From: Escherichia coli
GTDB taxonomy: Bacteria; Pseudomonadota; Gammaproteobacteria; Enterobacterales; Enterobacteriaceae
Strand: one strand, 5' to 3'
Assembly: GCF_044324875.1 (NCBI RefSeq)
Contig: NZ_CP172185.1
Length of the DNA stretch: 64,000 nt
Shown: positions 29,896 through 57,366 of the stretch, piece after piece
How positions within the stretch are numbered: position 1 is the first letter of the stretch
Layout of the letters: each line of letters begins with the position of its first letter
Translations under genes and position numbers: made by a program
The notes under the pieces: generated by a model
Seen by the model: the letters and a program-made list of their open reading frames with translations, nothing else
The model's database searches: none
What the model was told of the DNA's origin: nothing

Positions 29896-29951
29896 TCTGA
29901 TATTTTTGATAACGTTGACCGGCTCATTAGCAAAAAAGCAAAGAGGAAAAC

Positions 29952-30338
29952 ATGAAAGCCCGTATCGGGATCATCCCGGAAAAAGCCCTGCGCCAGCACC
30001 TGATTGATATTGCCAGAGGGAAGCGAAAACCACAGCCCGACGAGCCAAAGGTATGGTTTTCATCCATCAATGCGGCAGGCCAGACGCTGAGCAATGAAAA
30101 TATCGCCCTTCTGCGTCTTATGAATGAGGAGAAGCCGCAGACCATGACCGCACTTGCGGAGTTATCCGGCAGAAAACTGAGCAACCTGTCTGTAACCCTG
30201 AAAATGCTGAGCAGCTACGGTTTTGTCAGTCTGGAAAAGAAAGGGAATACTGTACACCCGAAAGCACTTTTTACCGATTTTGAAATCATCGTTGATCCGT
30301 CCGTGGGTTCAGTACATCGCGCCACCGCCCGGCCCTGA
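29952..30338 (+). CDS. hypothetical protein, possible winged-helix DNA-binding
   Basis: 128-aa ORF with RBS GAGGAAAA; segment ...MTALAELSGRKLSNLSVTLKML... looks HTH-like. Confidence 0.45.
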   Translation: MKARIGIIPEKALRQHLIDIARGKRKPQPDEPKVWFSSINAAGQTLSNENIALLRLMNEEKPQTMTALAELSGRKLSNLSVTLKMLSSYGFVSLEKKGNTVHPKALFTDFEIIVDPSVGSVHRATARP

Positions 30339-30348
30339 AGTGCGCAAT

Positions 30349-30370
30349 AAACAGCCCCGTTCGGGGCTGT
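30349..30370. terminator. hairpin cagccccgttcggggctg between convergent genes
   Basis: Seen in sequence between 29952-30338 (+) and 30374-30748 (-). Confidence 0.45.
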
Positions 30371-30373
30371 TAT

Positions 30374-30748
30374 TTATTCCAGAATCAGCTGTTCAGGTGT
30401 GCAGCCGTACAGTCTGGCAAGGCGCTCAATATTTGCCCTGCGCGGGCGTTCCGTTCTTTCGAATTCGGACACGGTAGCCTGCCTGATACCCAGCGCATCC
30501 GCCACCTGCTTTTGCGTCATTCCGCGATAGATTCGCCACGCCGCCTGCATTGTGCAGCCACGCTCCGAGAGAATGTTAACCACCTCGTTGGGATACAGCG
30601 TATCAGGCGATGCACACGGTTCGTTCTGGACGTCCTCGTAGAGTTCGTCAAGGTCGCTGTCTCCTGCCAGTTTTTCAAACAACGCCACTGGCAGAATGAC
30701 GGACACCCTGTTACCCGCACCGTCAGTAATAAACTGAATCTGACTCAT
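30374..30748 (-). CDS. XRE-family HTH protein, putative antitoxin/regulator
   Basis: 124-aa ORF; C-terminal ...MTQKQVADALGIRQATVSEFERTERPRRANIERLARLYGCTPEQL typical XRE HTH; strong RBS CAGGAGGGG. Confidence 0.6.
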   Translation of the reverse strand: MSQIQFITDGAGNRVSVILPVALFEKLAGDSDLDELYEDVQNEPCASPDTLYPNEVVNILSERGCTMQAAWRIYRGMTQKQVADALGIRQATVSEFERTERPRRANIERLARLYGCTPEQLILE

Positions 30749-30794
30749 TTACCCCTCCTGCTAAACATCGGTTTATTTTTTAATTTGCTGCCGG

Positions 30795-30821
30795 TGATAA
30801 AAAACGGCGGGTCGCCCCGCC
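30795..30821 (-). terminator. hairpin ggcggg-gcga-cccgcc + T6 immediately after the RelE-like stop
   Basis: Seen in sequence (reverse complement of 30795-30821). Confidence 0.45.
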
Positions 30822-31094
30822 TTAGTATGTTGTCGAGGTTCTCCGCTGAATACGGAGGATCCTGATAACCACTATCTGCCCTCCCTCAATCGTGAACCTG
30901 ACACGGTAATGATTTACCCTGAGTCTGTACTCCCCGCCCGAGTCAGTGAGCTTTTTAATATCCAGATTCTGGAACTTCGGATAGCCATAAAGCGCGTTAA
31001 CTTTCTCGCGTAAGGATTTCTGATCCCTCGCTGGCAAAACCCGTAAATCTTTGATTGCCCGAGGGGTCCACATGATTTCAGTCGTCATAAACAC
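30822..31094 (-). CDS. RelE/ParE-superfamily toxin-like protein
   Basis: 90-aa ORF; ...KKLTDSGGEYRLRVNHYRVRFTIEGGQIVVIRI... matches the RelE/ParE pattern (KxL..G...YRLRVGDYRV.Y). Confidence 0.6.
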   Translation of the reverse strand: MFMTTEIMWTPRAIKDLRVLPARDQKSLREKVNALYGYPKFQNLDIKKLTDSGGEYRLRVNHYRVRFTIEGGQIVVIRILRIQRRTSTTY

Positions 31095-42180: not shown

Positions 42181-43077
42181 ATGCCTTCCGTTGACCTGTC
42201 ACAGTTACCGGAACCGGCCATCATCGCGCAGCCGGATTTTGAGTCCATCCTGGCAGACATTAAAACCATGATGGTGAGCTCCTTCCCGGAAGAATACCGC
42301 GCCGCCGTCACCCGTGCCCTTACTCTGGAATCCGAGCCATTGAACATCATTTCCCAGGCCATGGCCTTTCGTGAAATGCTGCTTCGCCAGCGCATCAATG
42401 AAGCCGCCCGCGCCTGCATGCTCAGCCACAGCCGGGGCAGTGACCTGGACAATCTGGCCGCCAACAACAACACCCGCCGCCTGGTCATTCATCCGGCCAC
42501 TGATACCACGGAAGCAGTGATGGAAAGCGACACATCGCTGCGTCTGCGTGCCCAGTCAGCCTGGGACGGCCTGAGTGTGGCCGGACCGTCCGGCGCGTAT
42601 GAGTATTTTGCCCGGAGCGCAAGCGGTCTTGTCCGTGATGCGCGCGCCATCAGCCCGTCACCGGCCACAGTCACCGTCTCCATCCTGTCAGCAGACGGTG
42701 ACGGCACCGCCGGTGAGGCGTTACTGAACACGGTGCGCACCGCCCTGAATGCCGAGAACGTGCGCCCGGTTGCCGACCGCCTGACTGTGCAGAGTGCTAC
42801 CATCGTGAACTGGGTAATGGAAGCGAAGCTGTATTTTTATCCAGGGCCGGAGTCTGAACCCATGCTTGCGGCCGCTGACGCCGCTTTCCGTGCATGGCTG
42901 GCAGACCAGGGCCGTATCGGTCAGGACGTGGCCCTGTCAGCCATCACTGCAGCGCTGCATGTTCACGGTGTCCAGCGCGTTGAGGTCATAAAACCCACGC
43001 AGAACATCACCATCAGTGACACTCAGGCAGCCAGATGTACCACATTCAGCATCAGCGAAGGAGGACGCAATGAGTGA
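42181..43077 (+). CDS. baseplate protein J
   Basis: 298-aa ORF; P2 order. Confidence 0.85.
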   Translation: MPSVDLSQLPEPAIIAQPDFESILADIKTMMVSSFPEEYRAAVTRALTLESEPLNIISQAMAFREMLLRQRINEAARACMLSHSRGSDLDNLAANNNTRRLVIHPATDTTEAVMESDTSLRLRAQSAWDGLSVAGPSGAYEYFARSASGLVRDARAISPSPATVTVSILSADGDGTAGEALLNTVRTALNAENVRPVADRLTVQSATIVNWVMEAKLYFYPGPESEPMLAAADAAFRAWLADQGRIGQDVALSAITAALHVHGVQRVEVIKPTQNITISDTQAARCTTFSISEGGRNE

Positions 43078-43798
43078 CAGGAAAAAAACAGACAGCGCAC
43101 AGCACAGTACATCACTGCTTCCACCGTCCGCAGGGCCATTCATGCGCGCCACAGAGGCGACAGGAGTACGCATCAGTGCCATACCGGTGGACGCCGACAC
43201 CCTGTGGTCGCCGGACCGCTGCCCTGCTCACCTCCTGCCCTACCTTGCATGGGCATGTTCCGTTGACCGCTGGGACCGCAACTGGCCGGAAGAGACCAGA
43301 CGACAGGTGATTGGCCAGTCCTGGAAGGTACACCGCCAGAAAGGAACGGTCAGCGCACTGAGGGAAACAGCCGCAGCATTCGGTTATGAGATGACCATCA
43401 GTGAATGGTGGGAGCATGGAGGGCAGCCGGGCACCTTTACTGTGACCATCGGGGCAGACACTCAGGGCATCGGCCCTGAAACATGGCTGGAGATGGAGGA
43501 TCTGCTCAATGATGCACGTCCGGTTTCACGTCATATGACGGGGCTTTATGCCGCCCTGCGTTCTGGCGTGACGGTTTACTGCGCTGCGGGAGCAGGCTGT
43601 GATGAGCTTGTAACCATTCACCAGAAAGCTCGCGCCTCCCTGGCGGGCCAGGTGACCATCATCGCAGCAGGAGACACACACACAACCGACAGTGTGACCG
43701 TACTGCCGGGGGTTCCGTCAGGTATGTACGGGGAGATCTGTATCCGTACCGGCGCAGGTATATTCGTGAGTGAGATTGTGGAGGTTATCACCTTATGA
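43070..43798 (+). CDS. baseplate/tail protein I
   Basis: ATG 43070 with GAAGGAGG RBS, overlapping J stop. Confidence 0.75.
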   Translation: MSDRKKTDSAQHSTSLLPPSAGPFMRATEATGVRISAIPVDADTLWSPDRCPAHLLPYLAWACSVDRWDRNWPEETRRQVIGQSWKVHRQKGTVSALRETAAAFGYEMTISEWWEHGGQPGTFTVTIGADTQGIGPETWLEMEDLLNDARPVSRHMTGLYAALRSGVTVYCAAGAGCDELVTIHQKARASLAGQVTIIAAGDTHTTDSVTVLPGVPSGMYGEICIRTGAGIFVSEIVEVITL

Positions 43799-44910
43799 AC
43801 ACCGATTTTTATTCCGTTCTGACGGATGCCGGGCTGAAAAAACTGGCGGCAGCCGCAGCATCAGGGAATCAGATGAAAATCACCCATATGGCTGTAGGCG
43901 ACGGAAACGGAAAAGCCGTAACACCCGGCAGGGCCGACACCAGGCTTGTCAGGGAAAAATACCGTGCGCCACTGAACAGTCTGGAAGAAGACACAGAGAG
44001 ACCGGGGCATGTTATCGCAGAAATGGTGATACCTGAAAAACAGGGAGGGTGGTGGATCAGAGAATTCGGATTATTCGACGAAGACGGCGGAATGATTGTT
44101 ACAGGCAAATTTCCTGACACATGGAAGCCTGCACCTGGTCAGGGTGGAGCACGACTGATATCAGTGAAAGTGGTTGTGGCAGTATCACATACAGAAAACA
44201 TTGTGCTGAAAGTGGATCCTTCTGTTGTCATGGCAACCCGGGAATGGGTGAACACAAAAGCAGAGCAGTTAAAGAAAGAGCTCAGACAACCTGATGCAAC
44301 CACCAAAACAAAAGGCATTGTTCAGCTTAGCAGTGACATCAACAGCACCTCTGAAACGCAGGCTGCCACCCCCGGAGCGGTAAAAGCCGTGAATGATCGT
44401 GTGGACGGAAAACAGGACGCGGATCCCACGCTCACATCTCTGTCCGGGAAAAATGCACAGCAACTGAGGCAGCTTCTGGGGCTGGGCACGCTTGCCACCC
44501 TGAACAGGGGCACCGGTTCAGGGAATGTGCCGGACATGAGTCACTTTGCGAGTAAAAAAGCAGACTACGGTTACCAGTGTTTTCCTGGCGGCATAATGAT
44601 CCAGTGGCTGCGGATCCCCTCAGACCACACAGGAAGAGCTGTCAGTCAGGAAGCCCGGGTGGCACTAAGCGGCGTGCGACTGTTTTCAGTGGAGGGTAAC
44701 TGGAACGGTAATAACATGATTAAGACCCTGGCAAACTACCAGTGGCCGAGAGTTTTCGGGGCAATTTATGCGACCGTTGCAACCAGGAATCACGGATCTG
44801 CATGGCGAGTATATCCGGTGTCCGCGAACAAGGATGTGCGTGTCGTATCCATTGCCTGGGCGGGAGAAGGTACAGATGACACTTATGTGGTTGGGGTGGG
44901 AAGAGTATGA
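43795..44910 (+). CDS. tail fibre protein (gpH-like, short)
   Basis: 371-aa ORF after baseplate I; conserved N-terminal fibre anchor region then divergent C-terminus. Confidence 0.7.
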   Translation: MNTDFYSVLTDAGLKKLAAAAASGNQMKITHMAVGDGNGKAVTPGRADTRLVREKYRAPLNSLEEDTERPGHVIAEMVIPEKQGGWWIREFGLFDEDGGMIVTGKFPDTWKPAPGQGGARLISVKVVVAVSHTENIVLKVDPSVVMATREWVNTKAEQLKKELRQPDATTKTKGIVQLSSDINSTSETQAATPGAVKAVNDRVDGKQDADPTLTSLSGKNAQQLRQLLGLGTLATLNRGTGSGNVPDMSHFASKKADYGYQCFPGGIMIQWLRIPSDHTGRAVSQEARVALSGVRLFSVEGNWNGNNMIKTLANYQWPRVFGAIYATVATRNHGSAWRVYPVSANKDVRVVSIAWAGEGTDDTYVVGVGRV

Positions 44911-45394: not shown

Positions 45395-45841
45395 TTATCT
45401 GCCAGCATTGCGGATGATACCCGAAAGCATATCAGACACCGACGGCATCATTCGCTCCCGCAAATCCTCATCACAGCGTTCCATACTGACAGTGAACTCA
45501 ATTTTTTTGGCCTTACCGTGGCGGTCAAGTTCGCTTCGCGTTGTGCGGACAGCCGTTATCACATACATGCCGTATATCTGCCCCACACCGTCAATCAGCG
45601 GCCATGGGCGGCCAGTGTAAGCCTGCGTCGTTAAAAGGCTGAGGGAAACCTCACCGCCGGTAATTTCGGGATAAAGCACACCGGACAACGTGATCTGGTC
45701 GTCACCCGCCCCGATATACTGCCAGCTGGCCGAACGATTGATGCGTTCATTTTTAACGTGGCGCCAGGTTTTATTATGTTGCAGTTGTTGATGAGGCAGC
45801 GTACGCAACTCAAAAACAAACATGCCGTAAATCATCATCAT
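45395..45841 (-). CDS. tail protein U
   Basis: 148-aa ORF immediately downstream of tape measure gene on minus strand. Confidence 0.75.
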   Translation of the reverse strand: MMMIYGMFVFELRTLPHQQLQHNKTWRHVKNERINRSASWQYIGAGDDQITLSGVLYPEITGGEVSLSLLTTQAYTGRPWPLIDGVGQIYGMYVITAVRTTRSELDRHGKAKKIEFTVSMERCDEDLRERMMPSVSDMLSGIIRNAGR

Positions 45842-45852
45842 GCGAGGTACTC

Positions 45853-48800
45853 CTAATCTCTGTCACGGAAACTACCGACTGTCTGGCGGATACGGCGTTC
45901 CATTTCCGCACGGACGGCATCACCCACCATTTTTGCCAGTTCGCGCGGGTTTTGCGTGTGAACATCATGCAGGTGAATATGCAGTTCGCCAGTTAATCCC
46001 CATGGTGCCGGATCACTCTGACGCGGTCGGGGCGATGCGGGGGATATGGGCTGGCGCACAGCCTCAACCACCGGACGGGATGTTGCCGTTACGACGGGTG
46101 TCATTACCGGCGCAATATTGCCGGACACTACCGGTTTAATTACCGGGGAGAGCGTCGGTATAACATCGCCAGCCATAACCGGTTTGATCGCTGGCGAAAT
46201 AACCGGAGCAACAGACTCAGCCATGACGGAACTGACAGGCTGAGGCGCTCTCACTATGCCAGCATCGATAACCAGCATGAGCTCGCGTACTGCCTCAAGG
46301 ACAGGACGGGATATTGCCGCCATCACTGGTGTCATTAGCGGGGAGAACGTCGGCATGACATCGTGAGTCATAACCGGTTTGATCACCGGCGAAACCACCG
46401 GCGTAATATTACCGGACAGTACCGGACGGACGACCGGAGGAATAACCGGCACATTATTCACGGACACCACCGGCTTCACGACCGGCGACACGTTCGCCGT
46501 GGTGGATATCAGCGGCGAAACACTGACAGGCGGTGGCGCTGGCAGCGGTGGCAACGAAGGCACACTGACCGACGGCACCTGCGGCAGTCTGACAGGTGGC
46601 TCACTGACACTACCCGGTAACAGGGAAGCTGCGCGGTTAAAGCGTTCCTCCTTCCACTCACCACGAACGGCCAGCGCTTCCGGCAGGTTTTTAAAGATAA
46701 TATCGCCGGGACCAGTGCGTTTTTTCGCCTGTTTCGCCTCATCCAGCAGGCCACCGGTGTTATCGACGATTTTATTCAGGCGACGCATGGTGCCGGTATT
46801 CTCCCCCGTCAGCGGAGCAGTTGCTGCAGGTGCAGGTACTGGCGGCTTTTTGTCTTTGTCATTTTGCGGCGGATTAATGACATTAACATCCGCCAGGAGC
46901 ATGGCGGCTTTCTCGTTCAGCAGCTCCTTCTGCTTCAGCTCTTCCGCCTTTTTCCGGGCGCGCTCAACCGCCGACGGAATCAGCCCGAGTTTTTCCAGCA
47001 CCCGGGTTAATGAGTCAATCAGCAGCGTAACCGGACCGGTCACCAGATTGCTGATAAACTCCCCGACCTTCTGCCCGAACGTCCGCCCGGCTTCCGTGCA
47101 CTTGTCCAGCTCATCCTTTGTTGTGCTTACCGGCGCGAACAAATCCACGAACCACTGCCACACACGCCCGATTGTCTGCCCGACATACTCAAACAATGGT
47201 CCCAGTGGTGCCACAGCCTCGCGCAGTGGCGTAAGCCCCTGCCACAGGCCGGACAAGAACCCGCCCACGACAGCCTTCAGCTGGTCCCAGTGCCGCCAGA
47301 TAAGCACTGCCGCACCGACCAGTGTCGCCACCACAAGGCCCACCGGACTTAACAGAAAACCCAGCGCCCCGCCAAGTGCGCCCACCGCACCACTCACCAT
47401 CCCCCACAGTGCGGGCAGACCTGACAGTCTGAGCGCCAGTATTCCGATACCGCGCCCCAGTGAAATCAGTGCGCCGCCAGGTGAAGTGAACGCAGCCAGC
47501 AGACCACCACGCAGCGCGCCAAGTCCCGCCTGCACACCACGAAGCCGCCCCGCAACTACGCCCAGCAGTGCAGCAAACCGTCCGGCACCGGAGGTGATAC
47601 CGACAAACAGCACGCGCCAGCCACCGATACCGCCCAGCGGACCACCGAGTACGCCGCGCAGCTGCGTCAGTAACGGCAGCGCACGACCGAGGCCGGATGT
47701 GCCGGTCAGCAGGGCAAACCCAAGACGCAGTTTTGCCAGCGGCCCCATCAACACACCAGTGGCAAGTGACAGCGCCCCCATGGCCGCAACCGCAGCCAGC
47801 AGTGCACCACCGGCAATCAGCAGTTGTTTTGTCAGTTCAGGGTGCGCCTGGGCCAGCGCGGTGACTTTCGCAATAACCCGGGTGAACGACTGCGTGACAG
47901 AACGCAGCGGCCCGTCAACGAGGTCAGCGACACGGATACGCAGCCCTTCCCATGCGCTGTTCAGTGATTTCAGGTCGCCGTCCAGGTTGTCCGCCATGAT
48001 TCTGGCGTTTTCTTCCAGTTCGCCGTTCGCTGCCTGAATCTCACGCGTCAGGCGCGGCAGGTTTTTTTCGCCTGCCTGTTCAACCAGGCTCATCAGGGAG
48101 ACATACGCCTCCTGCCCGGCAATATCTGAAAAGAACGAGACTTTTGCCGCGTTACCGTATTTACGGGTGGCCTGATACAGCTCATACAGGATATCTTCCA
48201 TCGGGCGCATGTTCCCGTAAGCATCCTGCGTTTCCACGCCCAGCTGTTTCAGCGCCTTTGCTGCCGCTTTAGGCGGGTTCACAAGGCGGGACAGACTGGA
48301 GCGCAGCGCCGTACCAGCATCACTGCCACGTATCCCCATCGACCCAAGCAACCCGGTCATGGCTGCGGTCTGTTCAAGAGACAGACCGAGTGAGGCGGCG
48401 ACCGGTCCCGTATATTTCATCGTCTCACCAAGCCCGCGCAGGTCGGTATTGGTGCGGGTGAACGTTGCGGCCAGCGTGTCACCCACGCGGTTCATCTGGT
48501 CGGCAGACAACCCGAACTGCGTAAGGATATTTGAGCTGATATCGGCCGTCTGACCGAGGTCCATGCCGCTGGCCGTTGCCAGATTCAGCACGCCGGGAAG
48601 AGCCGCCTGTATCGCCTGCGGCGTGAACCCCGCCATGGCAAGGAACGCCTGACCGCTGGCAGCATCACCTGCGGTAAACTGCGTTTCGGAGCCGAGTTTA
48701 AGCGCCTGTTCGCGCAGCGCCTTAAACTGCGGACTGTTTTTGTCAATACGGGTCAGCGCCTGGACGCGCGACATCTCCTTACCAAAACTGACCGCCGGTT

Positions 48801-49395
48801 GCAGGAAACGCCCGGCCGCATAGCCACCTGCCGCTGCCGTGCCGACTGCCGTAAATCCACCCGCTTTCAGTTTTCCCGCCATCTCCTGAGCGCGGAAATA
48901 TTGCTGGCGTGCCTGCGTGACGCGTGCCAGAGTCTGCCGTTCACGTTCCAGCTGTTCGTTGTATTGCTGTGTTCGCCGTATGGCCTGTTGAATGGTGTTG
49001 TCACTGCCGGAAAGCGCAATACCGTGACGCCGCAGCTCACCACCCAGTTCGCGCATTCGCTGAACTTCACGCGCACGGACCTCATTGAGACGCTCAAGTT
49101 TGAGGCTCAAATCGTTCATCAGCTTTTTCTGTTTGTCAGACAGCACGGTTCCGGCGCGCTGAATTTGCTGAAGTGCGCTTAACTGGCGTTGTGCCCGGGC
49201 AATGCCGTTTCCGGCCTTGTTTGCAGCCTCGCGGGCGCGATCAAATGAACGGGCGTGGCGTTCCAGGTTTTTGATCGCACCCTGCGTTCTCTGTATGGAG
49301 TCGCCAAGCTGGCCCATCATGCGACGGGCGTTTTCGGTGGGACGGGTCAGCCTGTCAACAGCGCTGAAGGCGACCCGTATATCAAGCGTTTTCAT
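45853..49395 (-). CDS. tail tape measure protein (gpT-like), start taken at MKTLDIR
   Basis: Very long Ala/Gly-rich ORF with Pro/Val-rich repeats near C-terminus; ORF track start at 49431 is a GTG. Confidence 0.85.
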   Translation of the reverse strand: MKTLDIRVAFSAVDRLTRPTENARRMMGQLGDSIQRTQGAIKNLERHARSFDRAREAANKAGNGIARAQRQLSALQQIQRAGTVLSDKQKKLMNDLSLKLERLNEVRAREVQRMRELGGELRRHGIALSGSDNTIQQAIRRTQQYNEQLERERQTLARVTQARQQYFRAQEMAGKLKAGGFTAVGTAAAGGYAAGRFLQPAVSFGKEMSRVQALTRIDKNSPQFKALREQALKLGSETQFTAGDAASGQAFLAMAGFTPQAIQAALPGVLNLATASGMDLGQTADISSNILTQFGLSADQMNRVGDTLAATFTRTNTDLRGLGETMKYTGPVAASLGLSLEQTAAMTGLLGSMGIRGSDAGTALRSSLSRLVNPPKAAAKALKQLGVETQDAYGNMRPMEDILYELYQATRKYGNAAKVSFFSDIAGQEAYVSLMSLVEQAGEKNLPRLTREIQAANGELEENARIMADNLDGDLKSLNSAWEGLRIRVADLVDGPLRSVTQSFTRVIAKVTALAQAHPELTKQLLIAGGALLAAVAAMGALSLATGVLMGPLAKLRLGFALLTGTSGLGRALPLLTQLRGVLGGPLGGIGGWRVLFVGITSGAGRFAALLGVVAGRLRGVQAGLGALRGGLLAAFTSPGGALISLGRGIGILALRLSGLPALWGMVSGAVGALGGALGFLLSPVGLVVATLVGAAVLIWRHWDQLKAVVGGFLSGLWQGLTPLREAVAPLGPLFEYVGQTIGRVWQWFVDLFAPVSTTKDELDKCTEAGRTFGQKVGEFISNLVTGPVTLLIDSLTRVLEKLGLIPSAVERARKKAEELKQKELLNEKAAMLLADVNVINPPQNDKDKKPPVPAPAATAPLTGENTGTMRRLNKIVDNTGGLLDEAKQAKKRTGPGDIIFKNLPEALAVRGEWKEERFNRAASLLPGSVSEPPVRLPQVPSVSVPSLPPLPAPPPVSVSPLISTTANVSPVVKPVVSVNNVPVIPPVVRPVLSGNITPVVSPVIKPVMTHDVMPTFSPLMTPVMAAISRPVLEAVRELMLVIDAGIVRAPQPVSSVMAESVAPVISPAIKPVMAGDVIPTLSPVIKPVVSGNIAPVMTPVVTATSRPVVEAVRQPISPASPRPRQSDPAPWGLTGELHIHLHDVHTQNPRELAKMVGDAVRAEMERRIRQTVGSFRDRD

Positions 49396-49908
49396 GCTCT
49401 GCGTTCCCGCTGCGAAGGGCCGCCCGCTCACGCCAGGCGACCACCTCGCCGGGATCCATCAGGAAGATTTCAGCGGGAGACCAGTTGAAAATAACGGCGA
49501 TATCCGCCACAAAGTCTTCAATATGCTCAAAGGGCACGACGGTTATCAGCCTGCCGTCGCCGCCACGCTCTTCCCGCCAGAGTCCTGACCGGCCAAAAAA
49601 TTAACCGCCACCCCGCACAGCTGAATAAAATCAGCGGACCCCATGCGCTTAAGCAGAACCTCGTCCAGTCGCGGCGAAGTGACGCGCGGGAGTAACTCAA
49701 ACATCGCGTCCGTTTTCATGTTCAGCACGTCAAGCAGTGACAGCCCGCGCAGTGAACCGGCCTGCTGTACAGCAGGCGTGATTTCCACATACGTGATTTT
49801 TTTGTTACCGAGCACAAGGGGCGTTTTCAGCGTCACGCCGCGCTCACTGGTCACGTCCGCCGCATCAGCACCGTCAGTAACAGGGGCAACAACCGGATTT
49901 TCTTTCAT
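49382..49908 (-). CDS. tail assembly chaperone E' (E+E' product via programmed -1 frameshift)
   Basis: Slippery heptamer T TTT TTG (minus strand; plus-strand CAAAAAA at 49594-49600); -1 frame stays open to 49382, overlapping tape measure start. Confidence 0.5.
49546..49908 (-). CDS. tail assembly chaperone E
   Basis: 120-aa ORF between tube and tape measure genes; ends shortly after slippery TTTTTTG. Confidence 0.75.
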   Translation of the reverse strand: MKENPVVAPVTDGADAADVTSERGVTLKTPLVLGNKKITYVEITPAVQQAGSLRGLSLLDVLNMKTDAMFELLPRVTSPRLDEVLLKRMGSADFIQLCGVAVNFLAGQDSGGKSVAATAG

Positions 49909-49958: not shown

Positions 49959-50477
49959 TTAACCACCAAGACCAATCGCCGAGCGCACGCGGTCCGGGAA
50001 GACGCTTTTGCCGTCCTTGCGTTCGATGTGGTTCAGTAAATCAATCTCCAGCACCGGACGGTCGTTAATGCTGAGTTTGTAGTAGGTACTTTTGACCGCA
50101 TAGGTGTGAGACGTGACCTCACCCTGTTTGGCCTCCCCGGTATCAATTTCCGTCACGCGACCGCGAAGCTCAATCTCGTACAGGTCACTCTGTTCTTCAT
50201 CGTTGTAGTACTCACCGACAAAGCGCAGCAGCGTACCGTCAATCGTTCCGCCGTACTTGAGGAACAGTTCGCGGGTCGGCCCGCCCATGGTGAAACTCGC
50301 ATCCAGCGCGCCGTCATCCAGGCCAAGGTCGATATTTACTGCACCGGCCATACCACCACCGCGATAGGCTTCCGTTTTACGGGTCAGTTTGGGGGGCGTG
50401 AAGCCGGTCACCCTGCCAATCTGGTTCACCCCGTCAGTAAACAGCGTGAACACCCTGAGATTTTTTGGTACGGCCAT
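49959..50477 (-). CDS. tail tube protein (FII)
   Basis: 172-aa ORF, start overlaps sheath gene stop. Confidence 0.85.
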   Translation of the reverse strand: MAVPKNLRVFTLFTDGVNQIGRVTGFTPPKLTRKTEAYRGGGMAGAVNIDLGLDDGALDASFTMGGPTRELFLKYGGTIDGTLLRFVGEYYNDEEQSDLYEIELRGRVTEIDTGEAKQGEVTSHTYAVKSTYYKLSINDRPVLEIDLLNHIERKDGKSVFPDRVRSAIGLGG

Positions 50478-50805
50478 TAAGCACCTCCAAGCGTCGCAAA
50501 TGCAGGACCAAAGAATTCATCAGTAAACGTCTGGTAAAGTTCCATATCCTCAAGCGGCGGAACGGGCGTGTACTTGTAGCGGATACGCACGCGTCCCTGA
50601 CGAAGTTCCGTGGTGCTGTTATCCACCACGTCATACCAGCACTCCGCACCAACGAGACGTCCTGACGTAACCAGCGCATCCAGTTTTGCGCGAATTGCGC
50701 TTAACACGTCTTTCACATTAGCAGGGGTCAGCGGGGCATCAATCGTTTCAAACTGCGCTTCCGCAACAGAATCAGCCAGCACCTGATGCAAAATGGCATC
50801 TGAAT
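50477..50805 (-). pseudogene. tail sheath (FI) C-terminal fragment, separated from N-terminal part by an IS
   Basis: Frame ...AIDSDAILHQVLADSVAEAQF...RIRYKYTPVPPLEDMELYQTFTDEFFGPAFATLGGA ends where tube gene starts; 5' boundary approximate. Confidence 0.6.
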
Positions 50806-50988
50806 CGATCGCAGTTTGGCATTCGAATCGATCATGATTTGGCATCCATCTCCGATCACAGTTTGGCATCACAATCGATCACGATTTGGCATGCTTCCGA
50901 TCATTGATTGGCATCCTGCCAGTCACTCCGGGAATTAACTCTTTTCACCACAGTCTCCATTGCCGTGTTTAAACCAGTGGAGACGTCA

Positions 50989-52554
50989 ATGTCCAGAAAG
51001 AGAAAATCCAGGAGCACTATGGAAACCTGTTTTAAGATCCTTCAGCTCAAGTTCGACAAGAAGCTGACTAACCGTTGTATCGGACTGACGTTACACATCA
51101 GCGCCTCAACCGTTTTTGAGGTTCTTGCCCGCTTCAAAGCCTCTTCTCTGTCATGGCCATTACCTGCTGATATATCCCATGACACGCTGGAGAAACTCAT
51201 TTTTCCGCCCAAAGACACCTTTGCATCAGAGCTTGTAATGCCTGACATGTTGTACTTCGATACGGAAATGAGAAAACCAGGTGTGACGCGGCAACTGTTG
51301 TGGATGGAATACAAGGCACAGGCGGGTAACAAAGCGATGGGATACTCGCACTTCTGCCGTTGCTACCGGGAGTGGAAAAAAACGCGACGTCTCTCCATGC
51401 GCCAGGAGCATCGTGCCGGCGAAAAGCTTTTTATCGACTTCTGTGGTCCTACGGTTCCTGTTATTAATCCGGACACCGGTGAGATACGCCGCGTGGCAAT
51501 CTTCGTGGCCGTAATGGGGGCGTCCAACTATACCTACGTTGAAGCGTGCGAAGGTCAGGACATGATGTCATGGTTAAATGCCCACAGCCGTTGCCTGACC
51601 TTCCTGGGCGGCGTACCGAAGCTGCTCATCCCCGATAACCTCAGAAGCGCAGTGAAAAAGGCCGATCGATATGAGCCTGTCATCAACGACAGTTATCAGG
51701 CACTGGCTGAGCACTATGGCACGGTTATCATCCCGGCCCGACCACGCAAACCTAAAGATAAACCAAAAGCAGAAAACGGCGTCCTCATCGTTGAACGATG
51801 GCTTCTTGCCCGCATCCGTAATGAAACCTTCCACACGCTCAGGGCGCTGAATGCGCGCCTTAGGGAGTTACTGACAGACATGAATAACCGGCCAATGAAG
51901 GGGTACGGCAATCAAACCCGTGCAGAACGCTTCCGCATACTGGATGCGCCAGCACTCTCTCCGCTGCCTCTGGCACCTTATGAATACACGGAATACAAAG
52001 CTGTGAAGGTTGGCCCTGACTACCACGTTGAATATGCCCGTCACTGGTACTCCGTTCCACACGAACTGGTCGGTCAGCGTCTGTCACTGAAGGCGGGGCA
52101 GTCGGTGGTACAGCTCTGGCACAAGGGGCAGTGTGTGGCGCAACATCCGCGCAGCACACATGAATATAAACACACAACCAATCCGCTTCACATGCCAGAG
52201 CGCCACCGGCAGCACGGGACATGGACACCGGAACGCCTGATCGAGCAGGGAAAACGTACGGGCCCGTCCACAGGCCGGGTGGTTGAATCCATGCTGAAGG
52301 CAAAACCCCATCCGGAACTGGCTTATCGTGCAGTTCTGGGGCTGCTGGCACTTCAGAAAAAATACGGCCCGGAACGGCTGGAAAAGGCCTGTTACGTTGC
52401 CCTGCACTATAACGCCCCTGACAGACGCTTTATCGACAATCTGCTGCGTCACCATCGGGAGAACCTGGAGCTTCCATTATCCCGCCAGGGCGAACAACAT
52501 CCGGCATATGCTTCAGAGCATGAAAACCTGCGTGGTCCGGGCTACTACCACTGA
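50989..52554 (+). CDS. istA: IS21-family transposase IstA
   Basis: N-terminal HTH, DDE-type central region; start taken at MSRKRKSRS (ATG 50989). Confidence 0.85.
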   Translation: MSRKRKSRSTMETCFKILQLKFDKKLTNRCIGLTLHISASTVFEVLARFKASSLSWPLPADISHDTLEKLIFPPKDTFASELVMPDMLYFDTEMRKPGVTRQLLWMEYKAQAGNKAMGYSHFCRCYREWKKTRRLSMRQEHRAGEKLFIDFCGPTVPVINPDTGEIRRVAIFVAVMGASNYTYVEACEGQDMMSWLNAHSRCLTFLGGVPKLLIPDNLRSAVKKADRYEPVINDSYQALAEHYGTVIIPARPRKPKDKPKAENGVLIVERWLLARIRNETFHTLRALNARLRELLTDMNNRPMKGYGNQTRAERFRILDAPALSPLPLAPYEYTEYKAVKVGPDYHVEYARHWYSVPHELVGQRLSLKAGQSVVQLWHKGQCVAQHPRSTHEYKHTTNPLHMPERHRQHGTWTPERLIEQGKRTGPSTGRVVESMLKAKPHPELAYRAVLGLLALQKKYGPERLEKACYVALHYNAPDRRFIDNLLRHHRENLELPLSRQGEQHPAYASEHENLRGPGYYH

Positions 52555-52570
52555 CAGAAGGAACAACAGT

Positions 52571-53326
52571 ATGAGTGATAACCTGTTAAACAAACTGACC
52601 CAACTGAAACTCCCGGCGATGGCCGGGAGCCTGATACGGCAGCGGGAAACGCCTCAGACCTACGACGAACTGTCGTTCGAGGAAAGGCTGACGCTGCTGG
52701 TTGATGACGAGCTTCTGAGCAGGGAAAACAGCCGTGTGGCACGGTTGAGAAAAAATGCCGGCCTGAAATACCAGGCAACACCGGAAGGGCTGCGCTATCC
52801 GGCCTCAAGAGGTCTGCGGGCTGAACAGATGAGAGAACTGCTGAACGGCCACTACATAACCCACAGGAAAAACCTGCTGATAACCGGTCCGACAGGATGT
52901 GGCAAGAGCTGGATAGCCAATGCGCTGGGCGAACAGGCATGTCGACAGAAACACAGCGTCCGGTACTGTAGAACCGGGCGATTACTGGAACAACTGGCTC
53001 AGGGACGTGTTGATGGCAGCTGGCTGAAATATCTGAAACAGTTGCAAAAAATACAGGTTCTAATCCTGGACGATCTGGGGCTGGAACAGTTAAGTAACGC
53101 CCAGTGTAATGACCTTCTGGAGCTCATAGAGGATCGTTACGGACAAAGCAGCACGATAGTGGTAAGCCAGTTCCCGGTAGATAAATGGCATGGTCTGATG
53201 GAGAACCCAACAACAGCAGATGCCATCCTGGACAGACTGGTACATAACTCACACCGAGTGGTCCTTCAGGGAGAGTCACTGAGGAAAAATCCCCCGGTAG
53301 TGGAAAGCAGCGAAAAAACGCGTTAA
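52571..53326 (+). CDS. istB: IS21-family helper ATPase IstB
   Basis: Start MSDNLLNKLTQLKLP; Walker A GPTGCGKS, Walker B ILDDLG. Confidence 0.9.
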   Translation: MSDNLLNKLTQLKLPAMAGSLIRQRETPQTYDELSFEERLTLLVDDELLSRENSRVARLRKNAGLKYQATPEGLRYPASRGLRAEQMRELLNGHYITHRKNLLITGPTGCGKSWIANALGEQACRQKHSVRYCRTGRLLEQLAQGRVDGSWLKYLKQLQKIQVLILDDLGLEQLSNAQCNDLLELIEDRYGQSSTIVVSQFPVDKWHGLMENPTTADAILDRLVHNSHRVVLQGESLRKNPPVVESSEKTR

Positions 53327-53409
53327 AAAGCGGTAGAAAAAGTTAAGTTCCCGGTTGATCGAATGGATGCGAATCGCTGATCGGACTTCGATGCCAATCC
53401 GTGATCGAA

Positions 53410-54406
53410 TAGAGCGGAATACGCACACCTGAGCGGTTCGCGTGTACACCTCAAAGATATACGCCTTCGTTTCCGGCGTACGGTTGCCCCAGAAGCGGAA
53501 ACCGTTACGGCGAATGATGGTGGTGATTTCCTTGTTGTTGAGATTGTTGGCATCGCTGTCTTCGGACTGAAGGGACCAGAACACCGGGCTGGAAATACCC
53601 AGCACATTTCTTACCGGCACGTTGGACAGCGATTTATGCCAGCCCTGTTCGTGGTCAATACGTGCACGTAAACCGCAGGCGTACGCCGCAGCCGGGAAGA
53701 CCTCATTAGCGCCGGATTTCGGGTTATGGGCGATGAAGTCAGGCCAGAGCAGCATAAGTTCGCGCTCGTTAAATCTGGCGCGGTAGCTGATTGCATCAGC
53801 GGGCTTCTTGCAGTTGTGACAGCCCGCGTAGACAAATGCGCGAAGTTTTTCTGCAATTACACACAGGGATTTTGTGACAGCTTCAGTATCCAGTCCGGGC
53901 GCTGCGATGATGCGCGGACGGTAACCGATGGCATCATCCTGTTCAGCTATCAGAAGTGCATACATACCGGTATAATTACCGTCGCCATCCGTGCCACCAA
54001 TGACATACTGGTCCTGCGTTTTGTGTGGGTATACAGGATGTGCATCTTCAGACTCATCAATACCAAAAAATGCCCTGTCTTCAGGATCCAGATGACCGAA
54101 TGATGTAACTCCTGTATCCGGGGCGCCCTGAGAACTGGCATCAGGAACGCGCACCACAATCACCTTCGTGCTCACCTGGTCGGCGACAGCCTTAAGCGAT
54201 TTGTAAAGCGTCCCCTTTGTGCCGGCCTTACCCAGCACATCACTGACGCGGGTCAGCAGTGTGGGTTTGTTCAGCGGGAACAGAGTTTCATCCGCGTCAT
54301 CTGCCGTAGCCACAATACCAATAACACTGGAATCCACATCATTAATGGCGGTGGCAAGGCCGGTACTTTCCCTTACGCGCGCACCATGAAAGCGTGTTTC
54401 ACTCAT
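53410..54406 (-). pseudogene. tail sheath (FI) N-terminal fragment interrupted by IS
   Basis: Start MSETRFHGARV at ATG 54406; frame runs into IS right end where translation becomes IS-derived. Confidence 0.65.
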
Positions 54407-54490
54407 ATGTTTCACCCTTGTCTGGCTGGTTGATTTTGCGTAATCATTACCCACGATGCCGCCGGTATCATCTCCTGCCCGTTCTCACCG

Positions 54491-54566: not shown

Positions 54567-55658
54567 ATGACCGACCTGTTAATCAACGTTCCGTCACCGG
54601 ATATCGAAATCACCATCAACAACAACAGACTCCGTAACGTCACGGAGCGGCTCATGACGCTGTCACTGACCGACAACCGGGGCTTTGAGGCGGACCGCGT
54701 CACCCTGACCATTGACGACGCGGACGGGCAGCTTCAGCTGCCACAGCGCGGCGCACGCCTGAACGTGATGATTGGCTGGCGCGGGGAGGCGCTGGTTAAC
54801 AAGGGTGTCTACATCGTTGATGAAGTGACGTGGGAAGGCCCGCCGGACAAACTGACCATCACCGCCAGCAGCGCCGATTTTCGCGAAGAGTTCAACGTGA
54901 AGCGTGAAGTCTCCTGGCACGACGTGACGGTAAAACAGGTTGTGTCAGCCATCGCGCACCGCTACGGCCTGAAAGCACAGATAAGCGATATCCTCATGGA
55001 TATCGAAATTGACCACGCAGACCAGACCGAAGAGAGCGATATATCCTTCCTGACCCGCATGGCTGAAATGCTGGGTGCGATTGCCACCGTAAAAAACGGC
55101 AGCCTGTTATTCATTCTGCCGGGTGGCGGAACCGGGCCGGACGGAAAAGCCCTGCCTTCGTTCGCCATTACCCGCAGCAGCGGCGACAGTCACCGCTTTC
55201 GCATTGCTGACCGTGATGCGTATACGGGGGTCCGGGCGCACTGGCTCGATCTGAAGTTCGGGCAAAAGAAAAAAGTGAACGTGAAGCGACGCAGGGAAGC
55301 CGGGAAACAGAAACAGGAGAAGAGCAGCAGCCGGGAAGGTGATTACATGGAGGGCGCGGAAGGGAACGTCTACGTTCTGCGCAGGACTTACCAGAATGAA
55401 GAAACCGCACGACGTGCAGCAGCTGCAAAGTGGCAGGAACTACAGCGGGGCGCGGCATCATTCTCCATCACGCTGGCGCGCGGTCGTGCCGACCTGTACC
55501 CTGAAATGCACGGCAGGGTAACAGGTTTTAAAAGCGAGGTGGACAATCAGGACTGGATTATTGCCAGGGTGGAGCACAGCATAGATGAAAGCGGCTTCAC
55601 CACACAACTGGAGCTGGAAGCGAAAATCCCCGAATGGATAGCAGATTCAGGCGGATAA
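54567..55658 (+). CDS. late control/tail protein D
   Basis: 363-aa ORF directly upstream of ogr-like gene, as in P2. Confidence 0.85.
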   Translation: MTDLLINVPSPDIEITINNNRLRNVTERLMTLSLTDNRGFEADRVTLTIDDADGQLQLPQRGARLNVMIGWRGEALVNKGVYIVDEVTWEGPPDKLTITASSADFREEFNVKREVSWHDVTVKQVVSAIAHRYGLKAQISDILMDIEIDHADQTEESDISFLTRMAEMLGAIATVKNGSLLFILPGGGTGPDGKALPSFAITRSSGDSHRFRIADRDAYTGVRAHWLDLKFGQKKKVNVKRRREAGKQKQEKSSSREGDYMEGAEGNVYVLRRTYQNEETARRAAAAKWQELQRGAASFSITLARGRADLYPEMHGRVTGFKSEVDNQDWIIARVEHSIDESGFTTQLELEAKIPEWIADSGG

Positions 55659-56783: not shown

Positions 56784-56968
56784 CACCTTCATGACACATA
56801 TTAAGCAGACCTGATTTTTCCATGAAAAATTCATGGTTGAGACAAAAGCACAAAAACAGTAGATTAACCACGGGTGCCTGCCACCTGACAACAGGAAGGG
56901 GTGTCCATTATCCATGATATACAAACGAAAAGTCTTGTCTTTTGCCCGCCGTTGCGCGGGCTTTTTTT
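56784..56968 (+). repeat. repeat unit 3 ending in intrinsic terminator, candidate small RNA
   Basis: As unit 2; terminator stem 56943-56960 + T8 overlaps hicB stop. Confidence 0.35.
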
Positions 56969-57366
56969 TATCCAAGAACCCTGTCTGCAGCAACACGCGC
57001 CAGAAATCCAGAGCGGCTACCGTATTCAGGATGAGACTCAACGAACTGATCAATGCGACGAATAAGCAGAGATGGCAGGGTAACATTGATTTTTTCCGAT
57101 TTCCCCATCAGGCGGGACACATCCACCTCAACGAGCGCCCACACTGCATCACTGTATTCAGGATCTGATTGCCATTCATCAAGATTTGTAGCGACAGGGA
57201 TAGACTCACCAGATTCAACCAGTAATTCTACGTGTGCCTCAATGGCTTCACGGGCACTGTCTACCGCATCCTGAAAACTATCACCGCCAGAAAAACAGCC
57301 GGGCAGATCTGGGACGCGAACACCAAAAGATGAATCCCCCCGGTCAATAGCGATTGCATATAACAT
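56968..57366 (-). CDS. hicB: HicB-family antitoxin
   Basis: MLYAIAIDRGDSSFGVRVPDLPGCFSGGDSFQDAVDSAREAIEAH... typical HicB N-domain; C-terminal RHH-like tail. Confidence 0.8.
   Translation of the reverse strand: MLYAIAIDRGDSSFGVRVPDLPGCFSGGDSFQDAVDSAREAIEAHVELLVESGESIPVATNLDEWQSDPEYSDAVWALVEVDVSRLMGKSEKINVTLPSLLIRRIDQFVESHPEYGSRSGFLARVAADRVLG

Follow-up and report, generated by a model that had tools for sequence, protein, structure and literature searches.

Why does a tail-length ruler carry a proline- and valine-rich internal repeat shortly before its C-terminus, and what might follow when this repeat gains or loses copies? Tape measure proteins (TMPs) occupy the lumen of the phage tail tube and set the length of the tail; they are the textbook molecular ruler, and the length rule rests on an α-helical tape. 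Katsura and Hendrix reportedly saw the length of the lambda tail change roughly in proportion to TMP deletions and duplications. The question arises at a prophage gene in a 64,000-nucleotide (nt) stretch of Escherichia coli DNA (RefSeq assembly GCF_044324875.1, contig NZ_CP172185.1), hereafter called the window. An initial annotation had noted two Pro/Val-rich repeats of ~60 amino acids (aa) in an unusually long TMP of 1180 aa and had proposed that the expansion might mark a tail-length variant or a repeat-mediated hotspot. We found that the repeat is a proven recombination hotspot, and the observations as a whole are probably best explained by an expandable, non-helical Pro/Val spacer module upstream of the C-terminal anchor helix in a P2-family TMP.

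The gene was assigned from the list of open reading frames (ORFs), Pfam and its collinearity with phage P88:

45853..49395, minus strand: TMP gene (P2 gpT homologue), 1180 aa plus stop
48115..48714, minus strand: PhageMin_Tail domain, aa 228-427 (Pfam)

A longer form of the ORF (45853..49431, minus strand) would yield 1192 aa from a GTG at 49431, while the MKTLD methionine at 49395 gives the 1180 aa originally reported. The PhageMin_Tail profile (PF10145) matched residues 228-427 with E=3e-58 and 197.3 bits, against a cut-off of 33.2. Compared with the TMP of P88, the protein showed 67% identity in the alignable parts and was collinear over its entire length, interrupted by two large indel sites only. 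The gene lies between E/E' and gpU/gpD in the P2-type order E/E' - T - U - D, its nearest isolated phages are P88-like members of Xuanwuvirus (Peduoviridae), and an identical 1180-aa sequence is already public as a 'phage tail tape measure protein' of E. coli. It is an intact P2 gpT-type (PhageMin_Tail) TMP gene, and it is under purifying selection as a whole (ratio of nonsynonymous to synonymous divergence, dN/dS, of 0.17). Synonymous divergence (dS) between the window gene and a shorter allele of 1103 aa swings from 0 (aa 531-730 and 1131-1180) up to 0.83 (aa 221-430), so that the gene must be regarded as a recombination mosaic rather than a uniformly diverged ortholog.

At the DNA level, the repeat appeared as two pairs of direct repeats, 46130-46245 versus 46325-46440 (72% identity, spacing 195 nt) and 46046-46110 versus 46277-46341 (78% identity, spacing 231 nt), with a sub-period of 48 nt. 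Tandem Repeats Finder reported weak 12-nt arrays only, since the main repeat is too diverged (72-78%) and hierarchical to be recognized. Smith-Waterman alignment of one protein half of the repeat against the other scored 162, compared with 42.5±7.5 and a maximum of 72 for shuffled sequences. In a self dot-plot, all significant off-diagonals fell within residues 966-1115, at offsets of 16, 32, 65, 77, 81, 97 and 113. The best ungapped 20-aa diagonals (offsets 65, 77, 81, 97, 113 and 16) scored 66-75, whereas shuffling reached at most 42 for the whole protein and 56 for the Pro/Val region alone, demonstrating that the signal exceeds an effect of composition. The peptide strings and the interval 46000-46600 given in the initial annotation were correct, and the internal Pro/Val-rich repeats it had seen in the C-terminal part are real. 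Its two ~60-aa repeats likewise correspond to two blocks, which in turn consist of smaller units.

Residues 970-1115 (window 46051-46488) form a hierarchical repeat: Pro/Val-rich units of 16 aa make up two blocks, which are offset from each other by 65/77 aa. Two unit types could be distinguished: type A, SPV[VI]KPVVS[GV]N[IN]xPV[IVM], and type B, SP[VA]IKPVM[TA][HG]DV[MI]PT[FL]. Block 1 reads A-A-B-T and block 2 reads B-A-T, where T terminates in SRPVxEAVR. The elements are listed in the direction of the protein, the blocks being delimited by repeat and dot-plot analysis:

46489..46623, minus strand: Pro-rich lead-in LLPGSVSEPPVRLPQVPSVSVPSLPPLPAPPPVSVSPLISTTANV, 45 aa, aa 925-969, absent in P88 and phiT5282H
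46282..46488, minus strand: repeat block 1, aa 970-1038
46441-46488, minus strand: unit A1 of block 1
46393-46440, minus strand: unit A2 of block 1
46345-46392, minus strand: unit B1 of block 1
46282-46344, minus strand: terminal T1 of block 1, SPLMTPVMAAISRPVLEAVRE
46198..46281, minus strand: inter-block spacer LMLVIDAGIVRAPQPVSSVMAESVAPVI, 28 aa, aa 1039-1066
46051..46197, minus strand: repeat block 2, aa 1067-1115
46150-46197, minus strand: unit B2 of block 2
46102-46149, minus strand: unit A3 of block 2
46051-46101, minus strand: terminal T2 of block 2, TPVVTATSRPVVEAVRQ

Between the blocks, dS amounted to ≈0.38 with a ratio of nonsynonymous to synonymous differences (pN/pS) of ≈0.5. A triple-stranded β-helix of the T4 gp5C type, built from VxGxxxxx octapeptides, was considered and rejected: the offset-8 diagonal scored 36, below the shuffle maximum of 56, and the AlphaFold2 model described below contained no strands.

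With 1180 aa, the window TMP is longer than P2 gpT (815 aa) and the TMPs of P88 (935 aa) and phiT5282H (Novemvirus, 988 aa). The description as unusually long holds insofar as the protein exceeds every isolated relative, but the repeat region accounts for only ~160 of the 245 residues gained relative to P88. In alignments with P88 and phiT5282H, the proteins were collinear save for two sites of extra length. About 160 additional residues lie between the motif GPGDIxFKNLPxALAVRGEW and the C-terminal domain SRPVxEAxR...GEIHVHLH...GSFxDxD, and ~87 additional residues (versus P88) were found in a Gly/Ala/Leu-rich hydrophobic region:

47206..47838, minus strand: Gly/Ala/Leu-rich hydrophobic region, aa ~520-730, second length-variable site (composition profile and alignment)
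46654..46713, minus strand: conserved motif GPGDIIFKNLPEALAVRGEW, aa 895-914, upstream edge of the hypervariable linker ((nearly) invariant columns in a 20-sequence alignment)
45856..46050, minus strand: conserved C-terminal domain, aa 1116-1180, including GELHIHLH and a terminal helix at aa ~1150-1173 (kept in all aligned relatives)

The hydrophobic region differs by a 7-aa indel from that of strain F374 (1180- versus 1173-aa alleles), and its excess over P88 is partly present in phiT5282H. Internal repeats were not significant there (z≈1), and none were detected elsewhere in the protein outside the Pro/Val region. The linker between GEW and HxHLH, a definition valid for the P88-like clade only because the C-terminus of P2 gpT lacks both motifs, proved hypervariable across lineages in both length and sequence. 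It comprises 48-69 aa in most lineages, 104-107 aa in one other lineage, 147 aa in alleles with a single block and 224 aa in the window with its two blocks. At the homologous place, P88 has only ...ITPVVPAPLPPALVPVVAASSRPVAEAIR..., which looks like the seed that was duplicated into 16-aa units.

What conformation could such a segment adopt? Residues 933-1128 contain 20% Pro and 21% Val, compared with 3.6% and 5.9% in the rest of the TMP. Within the units, prolines are spaced every 3-7 residues and the longest Pro-free run is 7 aa; the longest run overall, 19 aa, extends from aa 1032 (inside T1) into the inter-block spacer. Judged from this spacing, the repeat segment cannot be a continuous α-helix. 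We modelled the C-terminal 312 aa as a monomer with AlphaFold2 from a 20-sequence alignment, with a mean predicted local distance difference test score (pLDDT) of 50. The repeats appeared as coil (pLDDT ~40), a single helix within the linker spanned model residues 157-176 (aa ~1025-1044, T1 into the spacer), and the terminal helix at aa ~1150-1173 reached a pLDDT of 80-88. The coil of this weak model agrees with the proline content, and we read the segment as non-helical. The ruler rule of 1.5 Å per residue is thus not directly applicable to it.

To see how stable the repeat is, one has to turn to other strains. We searched 5,426 complete E. coli genomes, found the 3' region of the TMP gene in 27 of them and classed the alleles by length and sequence. 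Eight genomes carry the two-block allele, with a TMP of 1173 or 1180 aa owing to the 7-aa difference in the hydrophobic region. A one-block allele (1103 aa, -231 nt) is present in 18 genomes, eight of which have equal chromosome size and are probably records of one clone, and a three-block allele (1238 aa, +195 nt) occurs in a single genome, strain Br_112_kylling. All observed TMP indels are in frame, and in an alignment of the C-terminal 900 nt the alleles differ by few single-nucleotide polymorphisms besides the indels. The breakpoints of the one- and three-block alleles map to microhomologies of 6-16 nt inside the repeats:

46174..46189, minus strand: 16-nt perfect direct repeat GATCAAACCGGTTATG (gene strand), block 2 copy, crossover site of the +195-nt allele
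46369..46384, minus strand: second copy of GATCAAACCGGTTATG, in block 1
46073..46088, minus strand: microhomology CGGCAA-N-ATCCCGTCC, T2 copy, junction of the -231-nt allele
46304..46319, minus strand: microhomology CGGCAA-N-ATCCCGTCC, T1 partner

The additional 195 nt of the three-block allele duplicate existing sequence exactly, with the perfect 16-nt repeat at their borders, and the 231-nt deletion fuses block 1 to block 2 at the CGGCAA-N-ATCCCGTCC microhomology. A fourth junction, in which B2-type sequence is followed by T1, opens five independent draft-assembly contigs and suggests another duplication with a different crossover point. Since the block number varies from one to three among near-identical prophages and the breakpoints fall within the repeats, the hotspot suspected by the initial annotation is confirmed. 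The expansion in the window, however, is not a recent one. Its two blocks stem from an old duplication (dS≈0.38), and it is other strains that have recently undergone a deletion and one more duplication. Alleles differ from each other by dS≈0.02 in the repeat region as opposed to ≈0.38 between blocks, which identifies the one-block form as a deletion derivative of a two-block parent and not as the ancestor. The same gpU (WP_000979935.1) and gpE' (WP_001115715.1) accompany one-, two- and three-block alleles, indicating that no compensating change took place in the neighbour proteins.

Could the series be an artefact of assembly, or the locus something other than a repeat in a TMP gene? Short-read assemblies do break at the repeat, many database entries are partial, and the five contigs mentioned above begin at the same repeat position. 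Many independent complete genomes nevertheless carry one- or two-block alleles, and a two-block allele is also present in one IMG/VR contig. A gene on the plus strand would be another option, as a long antisense ORF of 552 aa exists (46379-48037), whereas most substitutions that separate the alleles are synonymous when read in the TMP frame. Taken together, assembly error, a diversity-generating retroelement target or a plus-strand gene is an extremely improbable origin of these observations. The retroelement was rejected on its own grounds: the prophage annotation lacks a reverse transcriptase, and the 25 differences between the blocks involve all bases and show no adenine bias (A at 6 and 5 of the sites). 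As for the antisense ORF, its T/G/S-rich repeats mirror the Pro/Val codons of the TMP gene. This ORF is most likely a side effect of codon composition, given that allele substitutions in the TMP frame are mainly synonymous.

Public annotation reflects the same difficulties. In every genome examined, RefSeq/PGAP labels the intact TMP ORF as a pseudogene ('incomplete; missing C-terminus', 592-732 aa), and the repeat-bearing 3' third of the gene (equivalent of window 45853-47200) carries no RefSeq annotation. Many database proteins of the TMP cluster are partial because short-read contigs end within the repeat.

Does the repeat matter to the phage at all? It might be a functionless insert in a tolerant disordered linker, with block changes as mutational noise in prophages that are often defective. 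The hypervariable linker, the pN/pS of ~0.5 between blocks and the degradation of several carriers (TMP lesions and a sheath gene split by an insertion sequence, IS) fit this idea. On the other hand, the gene as a whole has the low dN/dS given above, and five copies of the 16-aa unit have kept their P and V positions although their synonymous sites differ by 17-66%. All alleles are in frame, though this is expected with units that are multiples of 3, and any polypeptide inside the ~4-nm lumen takes up length. We therefore consider it somewhat unlikely that the repeat is neutral.

Homology searches placed the repeat in a narrow lineage. An exhaustive HMMER search of 1.84 billion representatives, with the 194-aa repeat region as query, returned seven matches, none below 1e-10 and all unrelated low-complexity Pro/Val arrays, and in tblastn the repeat matched none of 50,697 phage records. 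A scan of IMG/VR for the 16-nt DNA pattern yielded one true locus (a two-block allele) and eight chance matches. With the C-terminal 286 aa as query, the repeat was found in three clusters only, all of them partial E. coli proteins. Sequence searches of the PDB left the C-terminal region uncovered; 9g8s_w matched the N-terminal half (query residues 19-604), and weak matches fell in the hydrophobic region. In these databases we found no homologue of the repeat outside the E. coli prophage lineage, and in the searchable open-access full-text literature no description of a Pro/Val-rich repeat module in any TMP.

The compositional matches bring up a role after ejection. Once the tail has contracted and the TMP has left the tube, a semi-rigid, extended Pro/Val rod might span the periplasm from the hydrophobic region to the C-terminal end, much as the Pro-rich rod of TonB or the wall-spanning linkers of surface proteins do in their own settings, with the block number tuned to the host envelope. 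The only similarities among the 1.84 billion representatives are indeed linkers of this kind, such as the KPVADPVV arrays of surface proteins, the hydrophobic region upstream of the repeat would be membrane-inserting under this proposal, and TMPs are thought to help build a conduit through the inner membrane (PMC9022992). The matches are, however, compositional rather than homologous (E≥6e-7, 25-39% identity), and the same species is infected by relatives whose linker measures 48-69 aa. A spacer of this kind appears very unlikely.

The tail-length reading put forward by the initial annotation corresponds to a classical extension of the ruler, in which the repeats are ordinary tape at ~0.15 nm per residue and the one-, two- and three-block alleles differ by ~10-12 nm per block. 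TMP length does change tail length in proportion in lambda and TP901-1, even when deletions affect non-repeat and hydrophobic regions (PMC5099701). Among P2-like Burkholderia phages, tail length rises with TMP length: the tails measure 140/150/160 nm where the TMPs have 842/920/1075 aa (PMC3091744). That every observed indel is in frame would also fit. Against an ordinary tape stand the prolines every 3-7 residues and the AlphaFold2 coil, which rule out a continuous α-helix. The P2-like slope is moreover only ~0.09 nm/aa (20 nm for 233 aa; PMC3091744), implying that residues do not all count equally. In TP901-1, ~127 terminal residues remain uncounted (PMC5099701), and the linker of the window TMP ends ~35-65 residues from the C-terminus. 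We thus regard a plain helical extension as unlikely. The P88 paper (PMC5285337) does not give the tail length of P88, which makes a lineage-specific calibration impossible.

The expandable spacer module starts from the demonstrated repeat with its architecture, position and non-helical character, from the allelic series and its breakpoints and from the purifying selection on the whole gene. A short ancestral motif would have been tandemly duplicated into 16-aa units and these into two blocks of 65-77 aa. As the units keep short perfect DNA identities, slipped-strand or short-homology recombination could go on generating alleles that stay in frame and contain one to three blocks, in line with the proposal that TMP repeats are 'natural facilitators of duplication/deletion' (PMC5099701, PMC3271669). 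Among contractile systems, diffocin is the only one whose TMP has been resolved at full length; there, a lumenal trimeric coiled coil is anchored on the spike by its C-terminal helices and reaches the collar with its N-termini (PMC10996793). By analogy, the terminal helix of the window TMP is presumed to be the anchor to the baseplate hub or spike, and the Pro/Val linker would sit above it, in the part of the lumen enclosed by the hub and the first tube rings. There, the module would alter the effective ruler length, and each block might plausibly change the length of the tail by roughly one tube ring or more. We estimate that a block of 65-77 aa would account for ~3-6 nm if compact (in a space 2.5-3.5 nm wide), ~10-12 nm at helix-like density and ~20-24 nm if fully extended. 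Two variants go further, namely a non-helical tape at another pitch (up to ~0.3 nm per residue if polyproline-II-like) or a rod that spans the periplasm after ejection. With either, recombination between units would let the prophage lineage retune tail or conduit length to different E. coli envelopes in steps of 65-77 aa (~3-6 rings), and we consider this pair of variants quite improbable.

Several points weigh against the spacer module. The effect of the blocks on tail length is one that we infer entirely. The three-block allele is represented by a single complete genome assembly. The AlphaFold2 model is of low confidence and monomeric, whereas TMPs are trimers or hexamers, and a pN/pS of only ~0.5 between blocks, calculated from very few sites, means that the repeat peptide itself is weakly constrained. 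Part of the variation could also be neutral, since several of the prophages that carry the repeat are decaying: the TMP is frameshifted or truncated in strains 135, LH10-b-1 and F11. The window copy, too, is probably unable to make contractile tails, whatever its TMP length, because an IS21-family element splits the sheath gene:

50787..53425, plus strand: IS21-family element within tail sheath gene FI (collinearity break versus intact prophage, Pfam, terminal multi-repeats)
50908-52554: IstA (Pfam rve/Mu-transpos_C_2)
within 52328-53326: IstB (Pfam IstB_IS21)
50477-50872 and 53276-54454: sheath gene FI fragments (Pfam Phage_sheath_1, Phage_sheath_1C)

The insertion measures 2,639 bp relative to the 99.5%-identical prophage of strain 24A16CRGN010, with a 7-bp overlap that fits a target-site duplication, and the ends of the element carry IS21-type terminal CGATCAnnnTTTGGCAT multi-repeats. 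At this sheath site, the element was absent in all four of the complete genomes with the same right flank.

The remaining tail genes of the window conform to a P2-type operon:

45395..45841, minus strand: gpU tail protein gene, directly downstream of the TMP gene (Pfam Phage_P2_GpU, E=6.5e-41)
49546..49908, minus strand: gpE tail-assembly chaperone gene, directly upstream of the TMP gene (ORF and annotation of the 99.5%-identical prophage)
49959-50477: tube protein gene (P2-type tail operon)
54567-55658: gpD gene (Pfam Phage_GPD)

In the 99.5%-identical prophage, the reference annotation shows the E' extension overlapping the start of the TMP gene. Along the window, a ppsA-ydi flank is followed by the prophage and by pheST-thrS of the E. 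coli chromosome. Members of the prophage family sit at two or more chromosomal sites, namely glsA-copA in 24A16CRGN010 and ydi-pheT/thrS in the window, F374, Br_112_kylling and TUM9803, and some genomes hold 2-3 copies of the TMP 3' region. NZ_CM148325 shares the prophage alone with the window (99.5%), at a different chromosomal site, and the window has the extra IS.

Some further observations concern the tail-fibre and accessory regions. In the region 43016-43798 / 43795-44910, the gpI ORF comprises 260 aa, of which only residues 35-170 match Tail_P2_I, and PGAP labels it 'incomplete' in a matching genome. The tail-fibre gene H in this region encodes 371 aa, compared with an 812-aa fibre in a related prophage with the same TMP and with fibre genes of ~2.2 kb in other records. 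As H lengths differ among prophages sharing the TMP, we conclude that the fibre module has been swapped, together with a different gpU (148 versus 162 aa). A HicB-like antitoxin gene (56968-57366, minus strand) lies where similarity to the 24A16CRGN010 prophage stops (~56970). Accessory cargo annotated in a near-identical prophage (early region, window ~29950-31090) consists of a RelE-family toxin with an HTH (helix-turn-helix) partner and an HVO_A0114-family DNA-binding protein.

That TMPs contain internal repeats and vary in length is already well known. The natural series of one, two and three blocks beside the baseplate anchor lets one test, in a contractile-tailed phage, which residues count and at what pitch. 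The pseudogene calls and assembly breaks, for their part, hide the lineage from protein databases and from calls of prophage completeness.

How does the module compare with known systems? With P2 gpT, P88 and phiT5282H, the window shares the gene order FII - E/E' - T - U - D, PhageMin_Tail and the hydrophobic centre. Relatives such as P88 also have the C-terminal motifs GPGDIxFKNLP...GEW and GEIHVHLH...GSFxDxD. The difference lies in the linker, which comprises 224 aa of Pro/Val 16-aa repeats in the window as opposed to 53-69 aa. Internal tandem repeats with copy numbers varying among related phages are likewise a feature of the 11/18-aa aromatic-marker repeats in TMPs of siphophages (TP901-1, lactococcal p2 and mycobacteriophages), which were proposed to aid duplication and deletion and hence the adaptation of tail length (PMC3271669, PMC5099701). 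The window repeat differs by its period of 16 aa, by the lack of a conserved aromatic (Trp/Phe) marker, and by Pro-rich non-helical units placed in a short linker by the C-terminal anchor of a contractile-tailed virus instead of a helical central ruler. It is outside the 11/18-aa aromatic class and shares with it copy-number variation only.

High, regularly spaced proline content and low complexity recall the Glu-Pro/Lys-Pro rod of TonB and the wall-spanning KPVADPVV repeats of Gram-positive surface proteins, and by this analogy the Pro/Val segment likely adopts an extended, polyproline-II-like spacer conformation. There is no homology to these proteins, and unit length, residue pattern and the context of a phage tail lumen differ. 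In contrast to the TonB-type rod, the repeat also lacks alternating X-Pro dipeptide arrays (Pro spacing 3-7), which makes the analogy a functional one only. The diffocin TMP CD1366 (PMC10996793) resembles the window TMP in its lumenal position, a predicted PhageMin_Tail-like globular region and transmembrane-like helices, and it served as the model for placing the C-terminal helix. Unlike the window TMP, it consists of ~75% coiled coil over its whole length, with no Pro-rich segment before the C-terminal helix.

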